A stretch of DNA of 64,000 nucleotides from Heterodontus francisci (taxonomy: Eukaryota), in assembly GCF_036365525.1 (NCBI RefSeq), contig NC_090376.1:71014964-71078963 (forward strand), given 5' to 3'. Positions 36,069-59,995 of this stretch are shown piece by piece. The notes below the pieces were generated by a model. That model was given only the letters and a program-made list of their open reading frames with translations. It searched no databases and was not told the DNA's origin. How positions within the stretch are numbered: the first letter of the stretch is position 1; each line of letters starts with the position of its first letter. A program made the position numbers and the translations under genes.

Positions 36069-38513
36069 ACCTGGAGGAAGCACTCAACACAAATTCAGGC
36101 ACTGACCATTTAAATTAATGCTCAGAAAATGGTGTGTGATGAATGCATACCTTTCTGTAAGTAATGCCCCTTGAGCAGGGGTATGAGATGCCCCACAGGG
36201 AATACAAATTTGGAAAATTATGCTTAATATGTTCCAAGAATGCTATTTAATTTCACAAAAGTGAGATAGGAAGTGTTCAGGGCCGGCATGTTCCTGTTAG
36301 ATTGAAGGGCAAGGCTGGCAAGTTTAGGGAACCTTGGTTGACGAGGGATATTGAGGGCCTGGTCAGGACAAAGAAGGAGGCAGATGTCAGGTATAGGCAG
36401 CTGGGATCAAGTGAGTCCCTCAAGGAGTATAGGGGATGTAGGGGTACACTTAAGAAGGAAATTAGGAGGGCGAAAAGGGGCCATGAGATTTCCCTGGCAG
36501 ATAAGATAAAGGAGAATCCTAAAAGATTCTATAAGTATATTAAGAGTAAAAGGGTAGCTAAGGAGAGAGTAGGTCCCCTTAAGGATCAGTGTGGTAATCT
36601 ATGTGTGGAGCCACGGGAAATGGGCGAGGTCTTAAATGAATACTTCTCGTCTGTATTTACTGTGGAGAATGTCATGGAAGCTAATGAGTTCAAGGGACGG
36701 AACAGCAATATCCTAGAGCATATCAACAGTACAAAGGAGGAGGTGTTGGAGGTTTTGAAGTGCATTAAGGCGGATAAATCCCCAGGGCCTGACCAGGTGT
36801 ATCCTAGGATGCTATGGGAAGCAAGGGAGGAGATTGCTGGGGCCCTGGCAGAGTTTTTGTATCATCGTTAGCCACGGGTGCAGTACCAGAAGACTGGAGG
36901 ATAGCTAATGTTATGCCTTTATTTAAGAAGGGCAGCAGGGATAAGCCAGGGAACTACAGGCTGGTGAGCCTTACATCAGTGGTGGGAAAGTTACTGGAAG
37001 GGATTCTGAGAGACAGGATTTATAGGCATCTGGAACAGCGAGGTCTGATTAGGGATAATCAGCATGGCTTCGCACGAATTTGATTGAGTTTCTTGAGGAG
37101 GTGACCAAGAAGATTGACGAGGGCAGGGCGGTGGACGTTGTCTACATGGACTTTAGCAAGGCCTTTGACAAGGTCCCACATGGTAGGCTATTCCAGAAGG
37201 TTCAAACACATGGGATCCAGGGTGAGCTAGCCAATTGGATACAAAATTGGCTTGGTGATAGGAGGCAGTGGGTGGTAGTGGAGGGTTGTTTTTCAGATTG
37301 GAGGCTGGTGACCAGTCGTGTGCCGCAAGGATCGATGCTGGGCCCTGTGTTGTTTGTCATATATATTAATGACTTGGATGTGAATGTAGGGGGCATGATT
37401 AGTAAGTTTGCAGATGACACCAAAATTGGTGGTATAGTGGACAGTGACGAAGGTTGTCTAAGGTTACAACAGGATATAGATCAACTGGGAAATTGGGCAA
37501 GGGATTGGCAAATGGAATTTAACGCAGACAAGTGCGAAGTGATGCATTTTGGGAAGTTAAACCAGGGCAGGACATATACAGTGAATGGCAGGGGAGCGTT
37601 GTTGAGCAGAGAGACCTTGGGATGCAAGTACATAGTTCCCTGAAAGTGGAAACACAGGTAGACAGGGTGGTGAAGAAGGCATATGGCATGCTTGCCTTCA
37701 TCTGCCGAGGCATTGAGTACAAGAGTTGGGATGTCATGTTACAGTTGTACATGACGTTGGTTAGGCCGCATTTGGAGTACTGTGTGCAGTTCTGGTCGCT
37801 GCACTACAGGAAAGATGTGATTAAGCTAGAGAGGGTGCAGAAAAGATACACAAGGATGTTACCTGGTTTGGAGGGCTTGAGTTATAAAGAAAGATTGGAT
37901 AGGTTGGGTCTGTTTTCCCTGGAGCGAAGGAGGCTGAGAGGGGACATGATAAAGGTATATAAAATTATGAGAGGCATAGATAGGGTAGATAGTCAGAGTC
38001 TGTTTCCCATGGTAAGGGTGACTTAAAATAGAGGGCATAGATTTAAGGTGAGAGGGAGGAGGTTTAAAGGGGATCAAAGGGGTAAATTTTTCACACAAAG
38101 AGTAGTGGGTATCTGGAATGAGCTGCCAGAGGAGGTGGTGGAGGCAGGAACAGCAGCAACATTTAAGAGGCATCTGGACAAGTACTTGAATGAGCAAGGC
38201 ATAGAGGGATGTGGAATTAATGCAGGTCAGTTTCAGTGTAAGTTAAAAGTTAATTCCCTTTTGTTTTCGGAGGACCAGGGGACTGCTGGGTAAGTAAAAA
38301 CTATATATTTGGGCGGTGGCTGTACCCGAGACACTACACGTGTAGTGTCTCCCACCCACCCTCCTCCTCTAACCAAAAAAAAAGGACTCTGGTGTGTTGA
38401 TAAGTTAAGCTTTTTATTTAAAAAGTTCTGTCCGTCGGATTGCTAAGCGAACAAGTTTTGACTTTTTTTTTTTGGTTTTTCAGTAGATTTGTTGGGAATT
38501 TAGAATAGTGGGA

Positions 38514-39449
38514 ATGGAGGTTAAGGCAGTTGTATGTTCCTCCTGCAGAATGTGGGAGGTAAGGGTCGACAAGAGTGTCCCTGCTGACTGCATCTGCGGG
38601 AAGTGCACCCAACTCCAGCTCCTCGAGAACCGCATTAGGGACCTCGAGCTGGAGCTGGATGAACTTCGGATCATTCGGGAGGCGGAGGGGATTATTGAGA
38701 GGAGTTTTGGGGAGGTAGTCACACCTCAGGTAAAAGAAGTAGGTAGATGGGTTACCGTCAGGGGAAGGAGAGGGAACCAGCAGGCAGTGCAGGGATCCCC
38801 TGTGGCCGTTTCCCTCAACAACAGGTATACCGTTTTGGATACTGTTGCGGGGGACGACTTACCAGGGGTAAGCAATGGGGTACAGGTCTCTGGCACAGAG
38901 TCTGTCCCTGTTGCTCAGAAGGGAAGGGGGAAGAGGAGCAGAGCATTAGTCATTGGGGACTCCATAGTTAGGGGAACAGATAGGAGGTTCTGTGGGAACG
39001 AGAGAGACTCACGGTTGGTGTGTTGCCTCCCAGGTGCCAGGGTTCGTGATGTCTCAGATCGTGTTTTTGGGATCCTTAAGGGGGAGGGGGAGCAGCCCCA
39101 AGTCGTGGTCCACATAGGCACCAACGACATAGGGAGGAAGAGAGATGGGGATTTAAGGCAGAAATTCAGGGAGCTAGGGTGGAAGCTTAGAGTGAGAACA
39201 AACAGAGTTGTTATCTCTGGGTTGTTGCCCGTGCCATGTGATAGTGAAGCGAGGAATAGGGAGAGAGAGGAGTTGAACACGTGGCTGCAGGGATGGTGCA
39301 GGAGGGAGGGTTTTGGTTTCCTGGATAATTGGGACTCTTTCTGGGGTAGGTGGGACCTCTACAAACAGGATGGTCTTCACCTGAACCAGAGGGGTACCAA
39401 TATCCTGGGGGGGAGATTTGCTAGTGCTCTTCGGGGGGGTTTAAACTAA
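38514..39449 (+). CDS. CR1 ORF1p: zinc finger/leucine zipper plus SGNH (GDSL-like) esterase domain, intact
   Basis: CSSC..CGKC, heptad LLENRIRDLELELDEL, and esterase blocks IGDSIVR, HIGTND and DGLHL. First ATG at 38514 (the ORF track starts at GTG 38508). Confidence 0.92.
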   Translation: MEVKAVVCSSCRMWEVRVDKSVPADCICGKCTQLQLLENRIRDLELELDELRIIREAEGIIERSFGEVVTPQVKEVGRWVTVRGRRGNQQAVQGSPVAVSLNNRYTVLDTVAGDDLPGVSNGVQVSGTESVPVAQKGRGKRSRALVIGDSIVRGTDRRFCGNERDSRLVCCLPGARVRDVSDRVFGILKGEGEQPQVVVHIGTNDIGRKRDGDLRQKFRELGWKLRVRTNRVVISGLLPVPCDSEARNREREELNTWLQGWCRREGFGFLDNWDSFWGRWDLYKQDGLHLNQRGTNILGGRFASALRGGLN

Positions 39450-42330
39450 TTCAGCAGGGGAATGGGAACCTAAATTGTAGTTCCAGTGTACAGGATGTTG
39501 AGAGTAGTGAGGTCAGGGATAAGGTTACAAAGATGCAAGAGGGCACTGGCAAGCAAGGACTTGGTTTAAAGTGTGTCTACTTCAACGCCAGGAGCATCCG
39601 GAATAAGGTGGGTGAGCTTGCAGCATGGGTTGGTACCTGGGATCTCGATGTAGTGGCCATTTCGGAGACATGGGTAGAGCAGGGGCAGGAATGGATGTTG
39701 CAGGTTCCAGGATTTAGATGTTTCAGTAAGAACAGAGAAGATGGTAAAAGAGGGGGGGTGTGGCATTGTTAATCAAGGAGAGTATTACAGCATCAGAAAG
39801 GACGTTTGAGGACTCGTCTACTGAGGTAGTATGGGCCGAGGTTAGAAACAGGAGAGCAGAGGTCACCCTGTTGGGAGTCTTCTATAGACCTCCGAATAGT
39901 TCCAGAGATGTAGAGGAAAGGATAGCGAAGATGATTCTCGACAGGAGCGAGAGTAACAGGGTAGTTGTTATGGGGGACTTTAACTTTCCAAATATTGACT
40001 GGAAATACTATAGTTCGAGTACTTCAGATGGGTCAGTTTTTGTCCAGTGTGTGCAGGAGGGTTTTCTGACACAGTATGTTGACAGGCCAACCAGGGGCGA
40101 TGCCACATTGGATTTGGTACTGGGTAATGAACCCGGCCAGGTGTTAGATTTAGATGTAGGTGAGCACTTTGGTGATAGTGATCACAATTCGGTTAGGTTT
40201 ACCTTAGCGATGGGCAGGGACAGGTATATACTGCAGGGCAAGAATTATAGCTGGGGGAAAGGAAATTATGATGCGATTAGGCAAGATTTAGGATGCGTAG
40301 GATGGGGAAGGAAACTGCAGGGGATGGGCAAAATCGAAATGTGGAGCTTATTCAAGGAGCAGCTACTGCGTGTCCTTGATAAGTATGTACCTGTGAGGCA
40401 GGGAGGAAGTTGTCGAGCGAGGGAGCCGTGGTTTACTAAAGAAGTTGAAGCGCTTGTCAAAAGGAAGAAGAAGGCTTATGTTAGGATGAGACGTGAAGGC
40501 TCAGTTAGGGCGCTTGAGAGTTACAAGCTAGCCAGGAAGGATCTAAAGGGAGAGCTAAGAAGAGCAAGGAGAGGACACGAGAAGTCATTGGCGGATAGGA
40601 TCAAGGAAAACCCTAAGGCTTTCTATAGGTATATCAGGAATAAAAGAATGACTAGAGTTAGATTAGGGCCAATCAAGGATAGTAGTGGAAAGTTGTGTGT
40701 GGAATCAGAGGAGATAGGGGAAGCGTTAAATGAATATTTTTCGTCAGTATTTACAGTAGAGAAAGAAAATGTTGTCGAGGAGAATACTGAGATTCAGACT
40801 ACTAGGCGAGATGGGATTGAGGTTCACAAGGAGGAGGTGTTAGCAATTTTGGAAAGTGTGAAAATAGATAAGTCCCCTGGGCCAGATGGAATTTATCCTA
40901 GGATTCTCTAGGAAGCCAGGGAGGAGATTGCAGAGCCTTTGTCCTTGATCTTTATGTCGTCATTGTCGACAGGAATAGTGCCGGAAGACTGGAGGATAGC
41001 AAATGTTGTCCCCTTGTTCAAGAAGGGGAGTAGAGACAGCCCTGGTAATTATAGACCTGTGAGCCTTACTTCGGTTGTGGGTAAAATGTTGGAAAAGGTT
41101 ATAAGAGACAGGATTTATAATCATCTTGAAAAGAATAAGTTCATTAGCGATAGTCAGCACGGTTTTGTGAAGGGTAGGTCGTGCCTCACAAACCTTATTG
41201 AGTTTTTCGAGAAGGTGACCAAACAGGTGGATGAGGGTAAAGCAGTGGATGTGGTGTATATGGATTTCAGTAAGGCGTTTGATAAGGTTCCCCACGGTAG
41301 GCTATTGCAGAAAATACGGAAGTATGGGGTTGAAGGTGATTTAGAGCTTTGGATCAGAAATTGGCTAGCTAAAAGAAGACAGAGGGTGGTGGTTGATGGC
41401 AAATGTTCATCCTGGAGTTTAGTTACTAATGGTGTACCACAAGGATCTGTTTTGGGGCCACTGCTGTTTGTCATTTTTATAAATGACCTGGAAGAGGGTG
41501 TAGAAGGGTGGGTTAGTAAATTTGCGGATGACACGAAGGTCAGTGGAGTTGTGGATAGTGCCGAAGGATGTTGTAGGGTACAGAGGGACATAGATAGGCT
41601 GCAGAGCTGGGCTGAGAGATGGCAAATGGAGTTTAATGCGGAAAAGTGTGAGGTGATTCACTCTGGAAGGAGTAACAGGAATGCAGAGTACTGGGCTAAT
41701 GGGAAGATTCTTGGTAGTGTAGATGAACAGAGAGATCTTGGTGTCCAGGTACATAAATCCCTGAAAGTTGCTACCCAGGTTAATAGGGCTGTTAAGAAGG
41801 CATATGGTGTGTTAGCTTTTATTAGTAGGGGGATCGAGTTTTGGAGCCACGAGGTCATGCTGCAGCTGTACAAAACTCTGGTGAGGCCGCACCTGGAGTA
41901 TTGCATGCAGTTCTGGTCACCGCATTATAGGAAGGATGTGGAAGCTTTGGAAAGGGTGCAGAGGAGATTTACTAGGATGTTGCCTGGTATGGAGGGAAGG
42001 TCTTACGAGGAAAGGCTGAGGGACGTGAGGTTGTTTTCGTTGGAGAGGAGGAGGAGGAGAGGTGACTTAATAGAGACATATAAGATAATCAGAGGGTTAG
42101 ATAGGGTGGATAGTGAGAGTCTTTTTCCTCGGACGGTGATGGCAAACACGAGGGGACATAGCTTTAAGTTGAGGGGTGATAGATATAGGACAGATGTTAG
42201 AGGTAGTTTCTTTACTCAGAGAGTAGTAAGGGCGTGGAACGCCCTGCCTGCAACAGTAGTAGACTCGCCAACTTTAAGGGCATTTAAGTGCTCATTGGAT
42301 AGACATATGGATGAAAATGGAATAGTGTAG
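39425..42330 (+). pseudogene. CR1 ORF2 (APE endonuclease plus reverse transcriptase), two lesions
   Basis: Endonuclease motifs FNARS, ISETW, MGDFN and SDHN; RT motifs QGSVLGP and FADD. Frameshift in the G7 run at 39752-39758 and TAG at 40909-40911 where the related copy at 36255 has TGG. Confidence 0.93.
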
Positions 42331-43024
42331 GTCAGATGGTTTCACAGGTCGGCGCAACATCGAGGGCCGAAGGGGCTGTACTGCGCTGTAATGTTCTAAT
42401 GTTCTAAAAGACAGGTGGGATTAGTATAGATAAGCATTATGGTCGGCACGGACGCGGTGGGCCGAAGGGCCTGTTTCTATGCTGTATGACTCTATGACTC
42501 TAAAAATTAACATGTTTATGTTTATAGTCAATCTTTCTTTAGTCGTTGGAAGAACACTTGTTGCAAATACTTCAGCTGGTCCTGAATAATTGGGTGGTGT
42601 AATATCATCTAGGAACACGACAGAACAACGAGCCCATTATTCATAAGGTACTGGAACACAGCTGGGGCACTGCACAGCTCAAATAGTAGTAACTTGAAGT
42701 GGAACAACCTTCCGCTGGATTGAAAAGACATCTTGGACATGCGCTCAATATACTGGAGACTGCCTGGAAACCTTTAGAAAGGGAAGAAAGCGGCAATGAG
42801 AATGGTAGAGGGAAGACCTCGAGTGGCCCCACGGTTCAGTGATGCCTCCATGCATGTTCTCCTCCAGGCTGCAAGGGCAAGGTGGGAGGTCTTCTTTCCC
42901 GCAGATAGGAGGAGAAGACTGGCCCACCTGACCAAGCAAGCTTTGATGGAGAGAGCAGAGGAGATCAGCAGCTGTGGTGTCTAATGATGGCCATGAAACC
43001 ATTGTCAATTGTTGTAAAAAAAAA

Positions 43025-45484: not shown

Positions 45485-47688
45485 AAGAACAAAGAACAAA
45501 GAACAGTACAGCACAGGAACAGGCCATTTGGCCCTCCAAGCCTGCGCCGATCTTGATGCCTGCCTAAACTAAAACCTTCTGCACTTCCGGGGTCCGTATC
45601 CCTTTATTCCCATCCTATTCATGTATTTGTCAAGATGCCTCTTAAACGTCTCTATGGTACCTGCTTCCACCACCTCCCCCGGCAACGTTCCAGGCACTCA
45701 CCACCCTCTGTATAAAGAACTTGCTTCGCACATCCCCTCTAAACTTTGCCCCTCTCACCTTAAACCTATGTCCCCTAGTAACTGACTCTTCCACCCTGGG
45801 AAAAAGCTTCTGACTATCCACTCTGTCCATGCCGCTTATAACTTTGTAAACCTCTATCATGTTGCCCCTCCACCTCCGACGTTCCAGTGAAAACAATCCG
45901 AGTTTATCCAACCTCTCCTCATAGCTAATGCCCTCCATACCAGGCAACATCCTGGTAAGCCTCTTCTGTACCCTCTCCAAAGCCTCCACGTCCTTCTGGT
46001 AGTGTGGCGACCAGAATTGCATGCAATATTCTAAGTGTGGCCTAACTAAAGTTCTGTACAGCTGCAGCATGACTTGCCAATTTTTATACTCTATGCCCCG
46101 ACCGATGAAGGCAAGCATACCGTATGCCTTCTTGACTACCTTATCCACCTGCATTGCCACTTTCGGTGACCTGTGGACCTGTACGTCCAGATCTCTCTGC
46201 CTGTCAATACTCCTAAGGGTTCTGTCATTTACTGTATACTTCCCACCTTTATTAGACCTTCCAAAATGCATTACCTCACATTTGTCCGGATTAAACTCCA
46301 TCTGCCATTTCTCTGCCCAGGTCTCCAACCGATCTATATCCTGCTGTATCCTCTGACAATCCTTATCACTGTCCGCAACTCCACCAGCCTTTGTGTCGTC
46401 CGCAAACTTACTGATCAGACCAGCTACATTTTCCTCCAAATCATTTATATATACTACAAACAGCAAAGGTCCCAGCACTGATCCCTGCGGAACACCACTA
46501 GTCACATCCCTCTATTCAGAAAAGCACCCTTCCACTGCTACCCTCTGTCTTCTATGACAGAGCCAGTTCTGTATCCATCTTGCCAGCTCCCCTCTGATCC
46601 CATGTGACTTCACCTTTTGTATCAGTCTGCCATGAGGGACCTTGTCAAAGGCTTTACTGAAGTCCATATAGATAACATCCACTGCCCTTCCTTCATCAAT
46701 CGTCTTCGTCACTTCCTCAAAAAACTCAATCAAATTAGTGAGACACGACCTCCCCTTCACAAAACCATGCTGCCTCTCGCTAATAAGTCCATTTGTTTCC
46801 AAATGGGAGTAAATCCTGTCCCGAAGAATCCTCTCTAATAATTTCCCTCCCACTGACGTAAGACTCACCGGCCTATAATTTCCTGGATTATCCTTGCTAC
46901 CCTTCTTAAACAAAGGAACAACATTGGCTATTCTCCAGTCCTCTGGGACCTCACCTGTAGCCAATGAGGATGCAAAGATTTCTGTCAAGGCCACAGCAAT
47001 TTCTTTCCTTGCCTCCCTCAGTATTCTGGGGTAGATCCCATCAGGCCCTGGGGACTTATCTACCTTAATGCTTTGCAAGACACCCAACACCTCCTCCTTT
47101 TTGATAATGAGATGACTGAGACTATCTACACTCCCTTCCCTAGGCTCATCATCCACCAAGTCCTTCTCCTTGGTGAATACTGATGCAAAGTACTCATTTA
47201 GTACCTCACCCATTTCCTCTGACTCCACACATAGATTCCCTTCTCTGTCCTTGAGTGGGCCAACCCTTTCCCTGGTTACCCTCTTGCTCTTTATATACGT
47301 ATAAAAAGCCTTGGGATTTTCCTTAATCCTGTTTGCCAATGACTTCTCATAACCCCTTTTAGCCCTCCTGACTCCTTGCTTAAGTCCCCTCCTACTGTCT
47401 TTATATTCCTCAAGGGATTCGTCTGTTCCTAGCCTTCCAGCCCTTACGAATGCTTCCTTTTTCTTTTTGATGAAGCTCACAATACCCCGCGTTATCCAAG
47501 GTTCCCGAAACTTGCCAAACTTATCCTTCTTCCTCACAGGAACATGCTGGTCCTGGATTCTAATCAACTGACATTTGAAAGACTCCCACATGTCAGATGT
47601 TGATTTACCCTCAAACAGCCGCCCCCAATCTAAATTCTTCAATTCATGCCTAATATTGTTATAATTAGCCTTCCCCCAATTTAGCACC
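45485..47688 (-). mobile_element. 5'-truncated CR1 LINE
   Basis: ORFs 46512-47688 and 45642-46505 with RT motifs. (TTCTTTG)n tail at 45485-45504. Confidence 0.92.
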
Positions 47689-50296
47689 TGGTTGCATGGG
47701 ATCATGCTGCCTGCGGTCAACGCTTCACCCTTGCCACTGTGCGATGTGCAACTGGGTGCAGGGCACTGGAAAGGTAAATGAAGCAGGCAATAGCACAGCT
47801 GTAAAAAGGTAACACTTTGTTGGTATGTATCCAACAGACGTAGGGTCATATGAAATGTCTGTGTATTAGCATGTCCTGAGTCTCCCTTGTGCATATCTCA
47901 TTGCATCTTGCCTGTGCTCGCTGAGGTCCCTCTTTTTGCATCGCCTGGTCAGCAGCCTCCTCCACATCCTCATTGTCAGAGGAGGTATCACAATCCACAA
48001 GATCCTCGTTGTTCAACTCCTCCCTTTGCAGCACCAGATTGTGCAGTGCACAGCAGACCACCACAATATGCGAGATTCGTGCTGGGGCAAACTAAAGGCT
48101 TCCACTGGATCGATGAAGGCAACTGAATTGAATCTTCAGAAGCCCTATGGCCTGCTCGATGGTGGCTCAGATTTCCCTGTGGCAGATGTTGTACCTTTCC
48201 TCTGCATCAGTGTGTGAGTTCCTTACAGATGTTAGTAACCATGTCTTCAGTGAATAACCCTTCGCTCCAAGTATCCATCCCTGAAGGCACGCGGGGGTCT
48301 GGGAAAGCTGTGGCACCTGGGATTGCCGAAGTATGTATGTGTCGTGTCTGCTTCCCGGTTACTGTGTACACACCTGAATGCTCCATCTGGGATTGTTGCA
48401 GACTGGTTTTTCATTGAGCACGTGGAAGCCCTTCCTGTTGATGAAGGCTGCTGGCTCGTCTGTGGGAGTCATAATGGCGACACGCATGCAGTCGATCATA
48501 CCCTGCACCCAAGGGAATCCAGGGATGACCCTGATCCCAATGGCTCTCTCAGCTTGCCTGTCTGGATTGGTACAGAAATGTGTCGCCAGCCCTCTTGAAC
48601 AAGGCATCAGTCACTACCTTGATGCATTGATGTGCTGCAGACTGAGATGCTGGACATATCTCCAGCGGATTGCTGGGAAGATCCAGAGGCATAAACATTC
48701 AGTGCCATGGTGACCTTCAGCACCACTGGCATTGGGTGGCCATCACCTCCCATGGGGCTTTCTTCGTGCTCCAGCGTGCCACACAGATCAGTGATAATCT
48801 CCCTGCAAAGGCACAGCCTTTGGCGACACTGCTGCTCCAACATTTGAAGGTAGCTGAGCATCGGACAATAGACCCACTCTGGAGGATTGCCTCTTCTGCA
48901 CTCAGAAGGCAGGTCGCATGCCCCTCAGCACCCTTCTCCTGCATCCCCACCTCAGGGTAGGCTCTTCGGTTGGCACAGAGATTGCTGATCTCTTGCTGCC
49001 TATGACTGACCTTCCCTCCCTCTCTGCTGCTCCTCCTCCTCACCAAAAGCCCTGATGTCAGGGTGAATGAGGTCCATGGCAGGTGGCCTCTCTCAGTTTC
49101 CAAGGCCTCTTATGCAAAGGCGCCCCCCCCCCCCCCACTTTATCGCACTCCCCCCCACCCCCAGCCCTGCTTCTAATGTTCAAATTCCACTGTCCAGATG
49201 GGACCCTGGCAGCACACCCTCACAATGCTAGCAACTTATCCCTCCCTTTGTTTGCCAGTGCCCTTGCTGCTTCCCACTCCCTGGAACACCACTCTGGCTC
49301 TCATGATGGCCACTGGATGAAGCCAGCACTGAGCTCTCATTTGCATGCAGCCTGCTTTTACAGGGTGAGGTTTGAAGCCCCGTGGTTCCCGTGTGCCGTT
49401 TGTAAAATTCAAAAACCCCTCTGAAATTTCTCACAATTGGCCAATTAATTGCCATAATTACATTTCTGTCACATTCATGCAATGTCCTCCTGCCATGTTG
49501 GTTGCCATTGGCCGCTCCGACATCTTCCATCCTGCTATTCCACCCACTGCCCCACCTCCAAGCCCGCTCCCAAAGGGCCCAGAAAATTCAGCCCTATATG
49601 TGGTTCATTAATACTATCTATCAGTTTCTATCTGACTAAAACTTGCCTCTCAGGAGCTTTCCTTTCTCTATAAGACATTCAATATTTATTATCAAACTTA
49701 ATCAATCATGACTCCTTACTAACAAATGAAATTGCGATCTAGCAGGAAAGGCACTGACAAATTCTCAGTTAATAAACAATCTTGATAAAATCTGAATGCC
49801 AGTGGGATAAATTCAATGGTAATTTTCCCTGTCAGTCCATTGCTGATAGAATTTGTCACTATAAGGGCTGGACCTATATGAGGTCTGCTGATCTACCACT
49901 TCTGCCTTCATCATACAGAAAGTGGCACATGCGTACAATAGGGCCGTGAATTGCCTGCTATCAAAGTGGATAGTCAGGTGTGGGACTGTTTGTTATCTTG
50001 TCCCCTGTGAGTTGCAAATAAATCTGAATTTTGTTATTCCATCCTTGCCTAGCTATGGCAGTTTTGTGCTGGTCTGTTCTCCACAGGAAACCCCTAAACA
50101 GCTTTTCACTCAGTAGCTTCCCTACTTTAATTAACACATTCACATTCCCCGTCCCACCACCCCTGGAGAATAAGCCGCCCTGAGGAGCGGTATTGCAACA
50201 TGGGCAGCTACAAATTATAAAGGTTGGTAAACAACATACAAAATATTTCAGTGGTCAGTCTTTTGTTGGAAATACAGTCAGTCCTCTGATTTCTTT

Positions 50297-52679: not shown

Positions 52680-53955
52680 AATTAGTGTGCTTGTAGTGTC
52701 AGCTCAGGTATGTTTGTCCAGGATTGCCACATCTGCAGGATATGTCTCTGCCTTGAGTCACTCTGGCTCCCAGTCATTGAGCTGGAGTGTGAGTTGGAGA
52801 CACTCTGACACATAAAGGAGGGACAGGAATTTCTTGATAGTTTTCTCCAGAGTACAGTCAAACCTCAGAAGAAAGCACAGGTGCAGGAAAAGGAAAGTTG
52901 GCTATCAGTAGGCAGAGTAGGGGGAACGTAGGGAAGGCAGAGAGAGGTTCTGTGACATAGCAGGTACGATGTACTTGCTGCCCATGAGGAGAAGGATGAA
53001 GGCTGATGGAGGATGGTCAGAATGCTAACCATGGCACTGTGGAGCAGGAGGTAGTTCAAGGGGAAAGGAGCAGAATAGAAAGGTTGTAGTCATGGGGATT
53101 CGATAATTAGTGGGACATAGATCATCATCTGCAGTTGCAATCAAGAGTCCAGAGGGTTCTGTTGCCTACCTGGTGCAAAGGTAAAGGATATCTCAGAGGG
53201 ACTGGAGAAGGACTTGGAAAGGGAGGGGGAAGATCCAGTTATCATCATCCATGAAGAACAGGGAGGAGGCCCTGCCAAGAGAATATGAGAAGTTAGGAAC
53301 TAAATTAAAAGGAGGGACCTCATGAATGGTAATCTTGGGATTAGCGCCTGTGCCACGTGCTATTTGACATAGGGACAGACGGGTGGATTGGTGAATGAAT
53401 TGAATGCGTGGTTAAGAGATTGGTATGGGAAGGGGATCTTCCATTTCATGGGATCATAACACTAGTTCTGGGACAGGAAGGAGCTATACTGCTGAGGCAG
53501 GCTCCACCTGAACTGGAATGGGACCAGAGTCCTGGCGAATAAATAAAACTGTGGATAGGGCTTTAAACTAGTAAGGTGGAGAGGGATATGATAGAAATAA
53601 CATAAGTCTGAAGATAAAAGAAATAGGAGATGAGATGAAAGGTTGGACCAAGATAAGCAATAAAGTTGATACAGAGTCAAGGAACAGATATAGTTGTAGA
53701 ACTTGCTGCAATTTGATAGGGCTTTGGCGAGACCACACCTGGAGTACCGTGCATACTTTTGGTTTCCATATTTAAGGAAGGATATACTTGCCTTGGAAGT
53801 GGTACAGCTCAGGTTCACTAGATTGGTTCCTGGGATGAGAGGGTTGTCCTATGATTAGAATCTGAGTAAATTGGGTCTATACTCTCTGGAGTTTAAAAGA
53901 ACAAGAGGTTATATCATTGAAACATATAAGATTCTGAAGGAATTTGGCAGACGTT
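52680..53955 (+). mobile_element. Old internally deleted CR1: ORF1 remnant joined to the ORF2 C-terminus
   Basis: VVMGDSII, CCLPGAKVKDIS and LHLNWNGT, ending AGG GCT TTA AAC TAG (RALN*), followed by LARPHLEY at ~53725. Confidence 0.75.
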
Positions 53956-56520
53956 GGGCTGAATTTTCTAGGGTCAGGATCCTGACGTTGGGACCATTTT
54001 TGGCTCACACATGACTACTGCCATGATTTTCAATAAGATGGCCAATTAGTAGCAAGAAGGCACGTTCAGCATCCAATTAGGTGAGGGAGCTGGACACGGC
54101 GAGCCCACTTTAAAGGGCTTACAGCACCACCATTGTAGGAATGGAGTTGTTGAAGGTTTGAAGAGAGAGGTGAGTAGTGGACCACCAGCAGGGTAGACTC
54201 TCAAGTGTGGGCAGTCCCACGATTTTCAGATGCCTCCCTTGAGTTTTTTCTGGAGGCGGTTGAACAGCGGAGCATACTTTTCCCAGAGAGTGGCAGGAAG
54301 AGGCCAGCCAGCCAGACAGAGGTGGCATGGCTGGGGGTGGCATGTGAAGTGAACAGCCGCAGCGCTGCTGCCAGGATGTGGGTACAGTGCCAATAGCACA
54401 TCAATGACCTACTGAGGGCTGGCCAGATGAATACAGTGTCACAGCCACATGACGACTCCAGTTCTGTACTGACCAACTCACCCACAAGCTGAGTAACCTG
54501 AGGCCGCATAGTGCTCCTGATCATTAAAACGATGTATGCCCTGGAGCACAATTGAGGCAGTGGCAGTTATCACACCACTGTCACTTGTGGAGGAGGCAGC
54601 ATGAAAGGCATTGAAATTTCATGTGTCTGAGCCGCGAGAAGTGGTGAAGGATGACAACATGGTCTTACCATTCTTGCTCTTGACCTTGCCGGAGAAGCAA
54701 GCTCACAACTCCAGGGAAAGGACTCGGTCAGGTGGTGTAATGCCCCATCTTGCTGTTCTAACGTCAATGGAGGAGGCCATTGACATTGCCAGGGTGGCAG
54801 CCCATCAGGAAGTCAGCGATGGTGAGATGAGCGTCCATTCAAGAGAGGGTGAAATGATCTTACCATCTCCAGGTGACGGGGATGGAGCTCTCTCCTCCTC
54901 AGTTTCCTCCATTCCTATAAATATGATGTAATTGAATGCAGCTGATGAAATAGGCAAGTTTTCCTTACCAGCTTCTTATGTCTCCTGCAGGGCCAGTTGT
55001 GGAGGGAGAGCCAGCGCAGGAACGAGTGACATCATCATCTTCTTCAGCCAAGGAAGAAGCAATCAGGCCAACACAGTCACATCAGTCAAGCATACCTTCC
55101 ACCTGTGCAGATACTCTCACCTGGGTATGACCTCACGCACGTTAATAACGGGTGGCACAGGTTGAGCAACATATCACAGAAGGGGGTAGAGGACAGACAC
55201 AGCCATGCTCAGCTGGGGAGAGATGCAGAGCCTCGGGTGTCACACACAAGGCGGGTCTTCCTCGAGCAGCAGCACGAGATCTGTGCCTAAATGTTGAAGT
55301 TCTCTGAGGCAGGGTGGAGTCACGGGCAGAGAATGGAGGCGTCCATCCATGACATGTACTCAGCTATGTCTCAGGCATATGAGTGCATGTCATCATCCAT
55401 TGAGAGACTGGCCAACCTCTTGGAGAATCAAACGTGTCATGATGCTCAGTGGATGCAGGAGCAGCACACTGAGAGGCGCAGAATGTGTGACACATTCTGT
55501 AGCATTGATCGGTAAGTGACATTGATGACGCAACAATGTATGGAGTGGATGCCAGGTGTGCCCCAGCTGGTGGTTCCCTCTGATGATCAAGTGTCACATG
55601 AAAGGGCTGAGGCAGGCAGCGATGAGGCGCCTTGGCCTGTCCAAATGTGGCACCTTCAATGTGGGAAGTGTGCCACTCCTCCACTTCTCCTTCATCAAGG
55701 TACACACCACGCTGGATGGCCATATTGTGAAGAGTGCACCAGACCACTACAATTCAAGAAATTCTTGAAGGAGTGTAATGGAGGGCACTCCCTGAGCAGC
55801 CAGGGCACTGGAACTGTATCTTGAGAAGTCCAATGGCCTGCTCTATGGCAGCCCTTGTGCTGAGATGGCAGCGGTTGTAGTGCCTCTGTGCCTCCGTTGA
55901 AGGGTTTCATAAAGGTTTTAGCAGACTTCTTTTCGATGGCTAGCCCTTGTCACTAAACAGCCATCTATGTATTCTCTGCGGTGGCATGAACAGCTGTGGC
56001 ACTTGTGATTGCCTAAGGATGAAGAAGTTATGGCAACTGCCAGGATACCGTGCACAGACACTTCTGATGGTCGCACACCAGCTCAATGTTAAGAGAGTGG
56101 AATCCCTTTCTGTTTATGAATGCCCCTGGCTGCTCTGCCAGTGAATCGATGGCCAAATGGGTCCAGTTAACAGCCCCCTGCATCTGAGGCAGTCCAGCAA
56201 TGGAAGTAATCCCACTTCCCTCCGTGCCTGTATGGCCCCATCAGTGGTGAACTCAATGTAATCCAATGCCCTCTCAAACAGGGCATCTGTGACCTCCTGT
56301 ATGCTGTGATGGGCAGCCGATTGTCAGTGCAACAGTCACTTTAACAGCTACTGGCAGGGCGGGCTGACACTCCCAGCAAGGAAGTGAGGTGGCCCCCCAT
56401 CAGGACACACAACTCTGTTACCATATGCCTTGTAGGCACATCCTTCGGTGACTGATACACTGTCAGATTCAGGAAGCTCATGCATTGTCAGTATACCTTA
56501 TGTGGAGGGCATCGTCTTCA
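53956..56520. mobile_element. Decayed Harbinger element (Myb on +, deleted transposase on -)
   Basis: Left TIR GGGCTGAATTTTC at 53956. VPRFSDASLEFFLEAVEQRSILF..WVQCQ on +; minus strand WCTLHNMAIQRG and HFFILRQS. Confidence 0.8.
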
Positions 56521-57754: not shown

Positions 57755-59995
57755 CATTGAGATTGTTTTTTGGAGCAATATGTTGTGGAACCAACCAGGG
57801 AGCAGGCTATTCTAGATTTGGTATTGTGTAATGAGGTGGGATTAATTAATTATCTCATAGTTAAGGATCCTCTAGGGAAGAGTGATCATAGCCTGCTAGA
57901 ATTTCAAATTCAGTATGAGGCTGAGAAACTGGAGTTCCACACTAGCGTATTGGAACTAAACAAAGGTAATTACATAGGCATAAGGACAGATTTGGCCCTA
58001 GTGGACTGGGCAGGAAGATTAAAAGGTAGGACAGTTGATGAGCAGTGGCAGATGTTTAAGGAGATATTCCATTCCTCCCAACTAAAATATATTTCAGAGA
58101 GGAAGAAAGATTGTAAGAGAGGGAAACAACATTCATGGCTAAGCAAGGACGTTAAGGATAACAAAGACAAAATCGAAGGCATACCATATTGCAAAGGCCA
58201 ATGGCAGGCTGGAAGATTGGGAAATGTTTAAAGATCAACAAAGGGTTACTAAAAAAGTAATAAAAAGGGCAAAGATAAATTAGCAACGATAAAGAAAACT
58301 AGCGCAAAATATAAAAATGGATAGCAAAAGCTTCTATAAGTATATAAAAGGGAAGAGAATAGCTAAAGTGAATATTGGTCCCTTGGAGGATGAGACTGGG
58401 GAGTTAATAGAGGGCAACACAGAAATGGCAGAGACACTGAATCAATATTTTGCCTCAGTTTTCATGGTGGAGGACACTAGTACCATCCCAATAGTAACAG
58501 GTATTGTAGAGGTTATAGAAAAGGAACTTAGAACAATCATCATTACTAGGCAAAAAGTACTGAGCAAACTATTGGGACTGAAGGCAGACAAGTCCCCAAG
58601 GCCTGATGGCCTACATCCTACGGTCTTAAAGAAAGTGGCAGCAGAGATAGTGGATCCATTGGTTATAATATTCCAAAATTCCCTGGGTGCGGGAAAGGTT
58701 CCAGTGGATTGGAAAAAAGCGCCCTTATTCAAAAAGGGAGGGAAGCAGAAAATAAGAAACTATAGACCAGTTAGTTTAACATCTGTCGTTGGGAAATTGT
58801 TAGAATCCATTATGAAGGAAGTAATAACAGGACATTTAGAAAGTCAAAACACAATCCATCAGAGTCAGCATGGTTTTATGAAGGGTAAATCGTGCTTGAC
58901 TAATTTGCTCGAGTTCTTCGAAGATGTAACAAGCAAAGTTGATAATGGGGATCCTGTAGATGTAGCATATCTGGACTTCCAGAAGGCATTTGATAAGGTG
59001 CCACACAAAAGGTTAATACACAAGGTAAGATCAGATGGGGCTAGAGGCAATTTATTAGCTTGGATAGAGGATTGGCTAACCAACAGAAAACAGAGGGTCG
59101 GGATAAATGGGTCTTTTTTCTGGTTGGCAAGATGTAACTAGTGGGGTGCCAAAGGGTTTGGTCCTCGGGCCCCAACTATTTTCAATCTATATTAATGACT
59201 TGGATGCAGGGATAGAAGGTACTATAGCCAAATTTGCAGATGACACTAAACTAAGTGGGATAGTAAGTTGCAATAAAGAAATAAGAATCTGCAAATGCAT
59301 TTGGATAGGTTAGGTGAATGGGCCAAAATTTGGCAGATGGCGTTTAACATGGATAAGTGTGAGGTTATCCATTTTGTTCGGAACAATAGAAATGCAAATT
59401 ATTATCTAAATGGAGCAAAACTTCAGAGAGCTTCAGTGCAGAGGGATTTGGGTGTCCTCATGCATGAATCGCAGAAAACTAGTTTGCAGGTACAGTGGGT
59501 AATAAAGAAGGCAAATGGAATTTTGTCATTTATTGCTAAAGGAATAGAGTATAAAAGTAGGGAAGTGTTGCTGCAACTGTACAAGGCATTAGTGAGACCG
59601 CACCTGGAGTATTGTGTACAGTTTTAGTCCCCTTACTTTAGGAGGGATGTAGTTGCATTGGAGGCAGTTCAGAGGAGGTTCACTAGATTGATTCCAGAGA
59701 TGAGGGGTTTGTCTTATGAAGAGAGATTGAGCAGTTTAGGCCTTTACTCTCTAGATTTTAGAATAATGAGAGGACATCTAATTGAGGTTTATAAGATGAT
59801 TAAAGGGATTGACAAAGTAGACATAGAGAGGATGTTTCCTCTTGTGGAGCAATCTAGAACAAGAGGTCATAGTTTTAGGATAAGGGGTAGCAGATTTAAA
59901 ACAGAGATGAAGAGAAATTACTTCTCTCAAAGGGTCATGTGTCTGTGGAATTCACTACCCCAGAGTGCAGTGGATTCTGGGACATTGAGTAAGTC
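57755..59995 (+). mobile_element. CR1 ORF2 remnant lacking both ends
   Basis: ORF pieces 57770-59999: AILDLVL, KSDHSL, KSPRPDG, YLDFQKAFDKVPH and KFADDTK. Confidence 0.92.

Follow-up and report, generated by a model that had tools for sequence, protein, structure and literature searches.

Programmed -1 ribosomal frameshifting at the heptamer U_UUA_AAC is well established for viruses, and classical -1 sites need a stimulatory structure to reach useful rates. On mammalian ribosomes U_UUA_AAC ranks with the shiftiest -1 heptamers, and its G_UUA variant is the site of equine arteritis virus (PMC5009743). A stem-loop or pseudoknot 3' of the site is not required everywhere, as described for the stimulators of PRRSV and of Ty3/EST3; in the PRRSV nsp2 shift, nsp1beta and PCBP act on CCCANCUCC, a motif that follows the shift site at a distance of 11 nt (PMC5009743). 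Among non-LTR retrotransposons, a -1 frameshift is needed for ORF2 of TRE5-A and TRE3-A of Dictyostelium, according to a figure legend in a review (PMC5911963). The models described for LINE ORF2 translation are reinitiation, coupling, and IRES or 2A (PMC3894237, PMC2881922, PMC5009743); ORF2p production by two-ORF LINEs has been called an open question, with reinitiation as the accepted model (PMC3894237, PMC5009743). In most non-mammalian vertebrates, CR1 dominates among the LINEs (PMC13343379). The words "frameshift" and "overlap" do not occur in the main texts of PMC4120745 and PMC13343379; in one of these two, a survey from 2026 that covers CR1-group elements of vertebrates, start codon and translation are likewise not mentioned. 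No report of CR1 frameshifting was found in the open-access literature, a scope outside which lie the CR1 papers of 1997-2003 and Repbase; an earlier proposal may exist in either. Overlapping CR1 ORFs were reportedly described by Kajikawa in 1997 and by Haas in 1997 and 2001.

The window analysed here, a stretch of 64,000 nucleotides from Heterodontus francisci, contains two CR1 copies of interest, referred to as families A and B (Table 1). The family A copy inserted into an older CR1, at the latter's 3' end. Its 5' boundary at 38224 is the start of 9 of 29 sister copies, it has 3' TGTTCTAA repeats, and at least 40 copies of 98-100% identity are present in the 6.0-Gb genome. The components of an esterase-type CR1 were all found, namely a zinc-finger-like region and an SGNH esterase in ORF1 (Lipase_GDSL_2, E 1.4e-13 in Pfam; E 3e-42 for the family profile against the ZfL2-1 esterase 4C1B) and an APE endonuclease with reverse transcriptase (RT) in ORF2 (PF14529, PF03372, PF00078). 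The nearest named ORF1 homologues are shark and ray proteins. The element appears to be a CR1, a class assignment based on the homology of ORF1 to turtle, lizard and frog proteins and on motifs typical of CR1. The ORF1 frame is open from 38487 to 39449. The window copy itself is dead because its ORF2 is broken by a frameshift near 39750-39770 and by a TAG at 40909-11.

Table 1. Features of the two CR1 copies in the window (positions of the 64,000-nt stretch)
Feature	Position	Strand	Remarks
Family A CR1 LINE	38224..42409	+	young esterase-type, full-length, dead; ends approximate
ORF1, family A	38514..39449	+	CxxC zinc-finger-like N-terminus, coiled region, SGNH esterase; Leu-Asn-stop at end
TAG closing the -1 frame	39422..39424	+	15 nt 5' of heptamer; in 27/30 family A copies; no ATG from there to heptamer
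Overlapping G_GGU_UUA heptamer	39437..39443	+	family-level feature, not generally conserved
U_UUA_AAC heptamer	39440..39446	+	conserved, likely shift site
ORF1 stop abutting heptamer	39447..39449	+	TAA in window copy
Open -1-frame linker, shift site to endonuclease	39446..39571	+	132 nt counted from heptamer start, 34/34 family A copies
G-run and second GGG	39457..39466	+	G4 in window copy, 10-nt spacer from heptamer; candidate 3' stimulator
Hairpin of earlier reading	39465..39484	+	no better than shuffles; not common to other families
ATG in linker	39533..39535	+	ACG in other copies; no conserved start
ORF2, endonuclease and reverse transcriptase	39572..42330	+	Pfam; broken in window copy
Family B CR1 ORF1	52714..53702	+	old, internally deleted; TTTAAAC TAG at 53562-53571

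An earlier note on this DNA had proposed that a -1 frameshift at the end of ORF1 fuses it to ORF2, and the positions that it gave for GGGTTTA, TTTAAAC, the TAA and the ATG at 39533 were confirmed by the sequence. The -1 frame indeed opens at 39425 after a TAG and continues into the endonuclease motif (Pfam), and ORF1 of the family B copy ends alike, with TTTAAAC followed by TAG. On both strands of the 64 kb, TTTAAAC+TAA/TAG/TGG-type decamers occur at these two sites only, each at an ORF1 end. In the family B copy the ORF2 frame is unreadable because the endonuclease was lost by internal deletion (no EN match; RT fragment from about 53700). The exact heptamer with TAA or TAG was found in 9 of 29 family B copies, and the majority columns numbered 207 under two thresholds but 206 under a third. 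Since the copies are too decayed and the count depends on the threshold, ORF2 of family B is likely, not surely, in the -1 frame.

Copies from the same genome were collected with DNA and protein queries and from 800 kb of sequence picked arbitrarily. To anchor the ORF1 ends, tails stripped of their last two residues were used as tblastn queries, and the best motif match near the anchor was taken. Exact TTTAAAC followed by TAA or TAG was present in 33/34 copies of family A, 25/25 of C, 20/25 of D, 19/21 of E, 19/20 of F, 18/25 of G, 19/25 of H and 13/20 of J, and in 14/22 of the random sample, after removal of 14 of its 36 matches that came from fragment P0111, whose Leu-Asn (LN) is internal. 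In nine CR1 families of this genome, and also in metagenome contigs of host origin, ORF1 ends in U_UUA_AAC with a stop. For comparison at the nucleotide level, 20 lineages were used, i.e., the nine families (column majority) and 11 single metagenome copies picked for a readable site; because they fall into about five related groups, the count of 20 overstates their independence. The heptamer columns were T 19, T 20, T 20, A 20, A 20, A 20 and C 20, so that TTA and AAC were each found in 20/20 lineages and the preceding T in 19/20, the sole exception being G_UUA_AAC. In the same ORF1s, TTA encodes 40 of 278 Leu (14%) and AAC 54 of 116 Asn (47%), T occupies 24% of third positions, and two conserved upstream leucines each use four codons, never TTA; the joint background is even so about 0.016 per group. 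The stop varies (TAG 13, TAA 5, TGA 2) with the heptamer fixed. The conservation therefore exceeds the coding need, and the heptamer is phased with ORF1 as X_XXY_YYZ. Synonymous variation of TTA or AAC, named beforehand as evidence against a frameshift, was absent among the 20 lineages. The tandem site suggested earlier, which included G_GGU_UUA, did not hold up, as G precedes the conserved heptamer in no more than 9 of the 20 lineages.

Among copies with an EN match, the endonuclease was in the -1 frame in 34/34 of family A, 23/24 of C, 14/24 of D, 17/21 of E, 16/20 of F, 20/25 of G, 20/25 of H and 12/20 of J (156/193 over the eight families). Modal linkers were, in the same order, 132, 162, 204, 150, 150, 150, 159 and 168 nt, all multiples of 3. 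The 800-kb random sample had 19 copies with an EN match, of which only 9 were in the -1 frame; the three off-frame copies that were traced further proved to be decayed members of the in-frame families G, H and J. A variable ORF2 frame, stops in the linker and a required ORF2 ATG had likewise been listed as contrary evidence by the earlier note. The modal frame was -1 in 8/8 readable families, the linkers were open in young copies, and no conserved AUG was found. The shared-variant test of stop avoidance, applied to purifying selection in the linker, was not significant (0/46 versus 14/350). Upstream of the site, a stop in the -1 frame lies 15 nt from the heptamer in families A, C, E, F, G, H and J and 3 nt from it in D, with no ATG between the two in the modal state, and this stop confines the ORF1/ORF2 overlap to the heptamer.

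The site is not confined to this genome. Leu-Asn ends 82 of 120 ORF1 homologues (one fragment dropped; most of the others are fragments), and the LN-ending proteins are named from sharks, rays, coelacanth, frogs, turtles, lizards and a snake. The residue before LN is rarely E, Q, K, M or W (2/82, whereas the two neighbouring positions have 39 and 31), a weak avoidance because positions -6, -7 and -9 are equally low. Among 150 cluster representatives, a DGLH region near the end was recognised in 88, of which 48 end in LN and 40 otherwise, seven of the latter in QGN; DNA of the QGN-ending group was not found in the shark's own genome or in viral, GTDB and plasmid collections. A metagenome scan gave 47 loci, 22 of them with the ORF1 tail, two of which were cut at the site; the 20 readable tails comprised 11 with exact TTTAAAC and a stop, one with GTTAAAC TAG, seven differing by 1-3 bases and one without the site. 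Of 14 metagenome copies with an EN match, 11 were in the -1 frame and 10 of those were open, with linkers of 102-273 nt. The loci resemble bird/reptile-type (amniote-like) ORF1s, the label "bird" resting on a motif that we presume to be characteristic, and an invertebrate-like group, in which LN ends 113 of 120 proteins, mostly copies of one family. The nearest named relatives of that group are two annelid gene models, both of which are spliced before the ORF1 end and do not show LN. No CR1 loci were found in viral contigs, and none of the seven long matches in a weak search was a convincing natural protein with ORF1 and ORF2 in a single reading frame.

Retention of Leu-Asn could also reflect protein function without recoding, if Leu-Asn were kept for ORF1p and Phe-Lys-Leu for the N-terminus of an overlapping ORF2 begun at an AUG. 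The last helix of vertebrate ORF1s has a hydrophobic period that the terminal Leu matches, and a linker Met is present in some copies (bird-like L138, L140 and L147; family C). However, tails after DGLH vary from 25 to 39 residues in LN-ending proteins and LN keeps to the stop whatever their length, so that it tracks the stop and not a position in the fold. The structure of the ZfL2-1 esterase, which folds without LN, ends before the LN position, at residue 302 (PMC3905857). Phe-Lys could moreover not be reached by initiation because of the missing ATG between the upstream stop and the heptamer, and a fixed linker AUG is missing in 7 of 8 families. Constraint on the proteins fits poorly, is largely refuted and appears hardly credible to us.

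Apart from the families without a fixed AUG, of which D, E, F, G and H have linkers mostly without Met, the exception is family C, with UAAUG at the stop in 25/25 copies. Leaving C aside, the -1 ORF is open through the site with no start of its own. Of the 30 copies nearest to the window copy, 7 have ACG in place of the ATG at 39533, as do 6/6 from other queries, a difference likely caused by CpG decay; this ATG is also altered in contigs of 4/4 runs from other organisms, whose RNA status is a guess. In families A and G (ATT) and F (GTG) a near-cognate codon overlaps the stop, and in other lineages the overlapping codon is AAT, GAT, GTT, GGT, GTA or AAG. Such codons bear on termination-reinitiation at or near the ORF1 stop, from an AUG or a non-AUG codon, which would give a separate ORF2p in the manner of L1, SART1 and caliciviruses, with the heptamer and the G-run as reinitiation signals. 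Reinitiation would draw on the ATG of C and the near-cognates of A, F and G, and it accounts for an open linker in a fixed frame; non-AUG codons are tolerated in caliciviral reinitiation, and SART1 needs a downstream element (PMC5972666). However, the other overlapping codons do not suit it, and it predicts neither an exact, phased X_XXY_YYZ heptamer nor the G_UUA_AAC variant. Coupling of the SART1 type would find its stop-overlapping AUG in one of eight families, and downstream RNA structure was not found. Reinitiation, the main alternative to frameshifting, is thus, in our estimate, unlikely.

The sequence 3' of the heptamer points to a further element. Counted from the heptamer start, positions 18-22 are G in 20, 20, 19, 19 and 18 of 20 lineages, forming a G-run that begins exactly 10 nt 3' of the heptamer and reaches G5-G7 in most lineages. 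Position 18 is a third codon position, with varying residues at codon 16-18 (Q, K, G, S, W), and positions 19-21 are Gly GGG; in the remaining linker, G occupies 27% of third positions and GGG encodes 9 of 40 Gly. In 15 of the 20 representative copies, position 18 begins a run of at least five G, whereas roughly 11,300 nt of downstream sequence hold 26 such runs. The G-run is thus conserved at synonymous positions and is a candidate stimulator. The hairpin noted earlier can be drawn, but folding of 39447-39530 (-11.7 kcal/mol, z +0.66) is no better than chance, as 151 of 200 shuffles fold as well, and other families do not share it. Over 60 nt in 19 lineages, z ranged from -2.6 to +1.6, with only 2/19 at or below -2 and the G-run not consistently paired, and no stem-loop or pseudoknot was found 5-9 nt downstream. 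The best duplexes of the G-run with partners from about -1.1 to +1.5 kb, for which there was no shuffle control, scattered in position. C-runs recur near -643 and +1430-1470 and likely reflect proline codons. An intramolecular G-quadruplex was rejected, since a 2-tier motif occurs in 11 of 20 representatives and is missing from the window's family A, and a quadruplex-stimulated shift was rejected as well, since four G-tracts directly after the spacer are not present in all lineages.

The frames could alternatively be joined in the RNA, by polymerase slippage on T/A or G runs or by splicing over the junction. Homopolymer runs flank the site and the TAG families resemble a splice acceptor; the acceptor AG is, however, missing in TAA and TGA families. 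Added bases would be fixed by retrotransposition, and the young copies keep one linker length. Contigs of four runs, from which expression level and strand cannot be read and whose RNA status is guessed, contain neither an inserted base nor a joint across 39437-39449, which is weak evidence because contigs drop rare variants. Joining in the RNA also fits poorly, and we judge it very improbable.

Based on these results, the frameshift reading of the earlier note is supported, with a mechanism inferred from sequence: esterase-type CR1 LINEs quite probably use a programmed -1 ribosomal frameshift to produce an ORF1-EN-RT fusion. When UUA occupies the P site and AAC the A site, a fraction of ribosomes would slip back one base, tRNA-Leu (UUA) and tRNA-Asn (AAC) shifting in tandem onto UUU AAA. 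These ribosomes would bypass the stop and make ORF1-linker-EN-RT as a minor product; the remainder would terminate and give abundant ORF1p. The shift rate would set the ORF1p:ORF2p ratio, as in gag-pol, and the G-run could act as a 3' stimulator without a local hairpin, through a bound protein or a single-stranded effect. The lack of a stimulatory structure, the UAAUG of family C, the near-cognates in A, F and G, the low share of -1-frame copies in the random sample, the non-significant linker test and the use of reinitiation by L1 and SART1 stand against frameshifting.

If frameshifting is true, the CR1 enzyme would be tethered to an oligomerising esterase ORF1p, and the frequent lack of a start codon in intact CR1 ORF2s would be accounted for. 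Annotation would be corrected, as would the way in which active CR1 reporters are designed, and the natural -1 sites would gain a very old member whose 3' element is unusual. A wider proposal, which we put forward only tentatively and regard as somewhat doubtful, is that the shift in esterase CR1s predates the vertebrate radiation and possibly dates to early bilaterians, that it is driven by the unstructured G-run 10 nt downstream, which a protein (a host G-run binder or ORF1p) would recognise, making the shift regulated and trans-activated, and that a sister clade swapped to G_GGA_AAC.

In comparison with known systems, the family A element agrees with canonical vertebrate CR1 (subgroup 7 / type IVB), described with a zinc-finger/zipper and esterase ORF1 and an APE and RT ORF2 (PMC4120745, PMC13343379). 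SART1, with UAAUG coupling, and L1, with ORF2 reinitiation, are alike in having a bicistronic LINE RNA, and UAAUG is common to CR1 family C; in contrast, the AUG is missing in most CR1 families, and the L1 spacer is given as 63 nt (PMC5972666). Retroviral and LTR gag-pol and coronavirus 1a/1b have the same heptamer and phase, at the end of a structural ORF with the enzyme ORF in -1 (PMC5009743), whereas the CR1 site has no pseudoknot or stem-loop that was found, and a LINE has no protease to cut the fusion. The G-run resembles the PRRSV motif in that both are short, unstructured and fixed in their distance from the site, 11 nt in PRRSV and a 10-nt spacer in CR1; the PRRSV motif is C-rich and protein-bound, that of CR1 is G-rich, and the likeness is an analogy only. 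TRE5-A and TRE3-A are, as described in the source cited above, APE-type non-LTR elements with ORF1 followed by an APE-RT ORF2 and a stated -1 shift, but they are amoeba elements with another ORF1, no esterase and no known G-run. A -1 shift at U_UUA_AAC is thus known in viruses, and a -1 shift is stated for TRE5-A and TRE3-A; what appears to be new is the likely presence of such a site in CR1 LINEs.

Two predicted proteins (P0037 and P0086) are gene models built from indel-bearing copies, in which the ORF1–ORF2 junction was translated through as FKL, and the same junction nucleotides are therefore present in a ray (Hypanus sabinus) and in one further source. In family D, three copies (L094, L100, and L107) had a divergent 3' half of the linker between the heptamer and the endonuclease, which measured 195 rather than 204 nt, with the -1 frame retained in L100 and L107. 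These copies likely represent a recombinant subfamily.

Among the 40 ORF1 ends lacking Leu-Asn, seven (P0304, P0309, P0312, P0321, P0330, P0334, and P0376) terminated in Gln-Gly-Asn, an end kept in these esterase ORF1s although their tail lengths differ. They form a sister group, and codons CAG GGA AAC, if used, would place a slippery G_GGA_AAC directly before the stop. No DNA for these ORF1s was found in the own-genome, viral, GTDB, and plasmid collections. Separately, CR1 ORF1 sequences were filed under Pseudomonas aeruginosa (P0007), a Gammaproteobacteria MAG (P0121), Protopolystoma xenopodis (P0087), and Providencia alcalifaciens (L183), likely as host contamination.

Other elements in the window are listed below; the CxLHN motif of the decayed frame is suggestive of a Harbinger-type transposase.

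Other elements in the window
Feature	Position (strand)	Remark
Older CR1 hosting the family A insertion in its own 3' end	36251-38223 and 42410-42503	Tail resumes after 42410
Additional CR1 ORF2 fragments and decayed frame with CxLHN motif	45642-47897 (-), 57761-58231 (+), 55364-55753 (-)	

One survey (PMC4120745) recovered esterase ORF1 from vertebrate subgroups alone, whereas here it also occurred in five invertebrate-like LINEs (L143, L144, L146, L149, and L167). Among named sequences, gene models of Lamellibrachia satsuma come closest to these, at 68-71% identity. In family C (L061-L085), the heptamer and the downstream G-run are retained alongside an in-frame ATG overlapping the ORF1 stop (UAAUG; 25/25 copies), and both frameshifting and initiation at UAAUG may be open to it, the latter arrangement being SART1-like.
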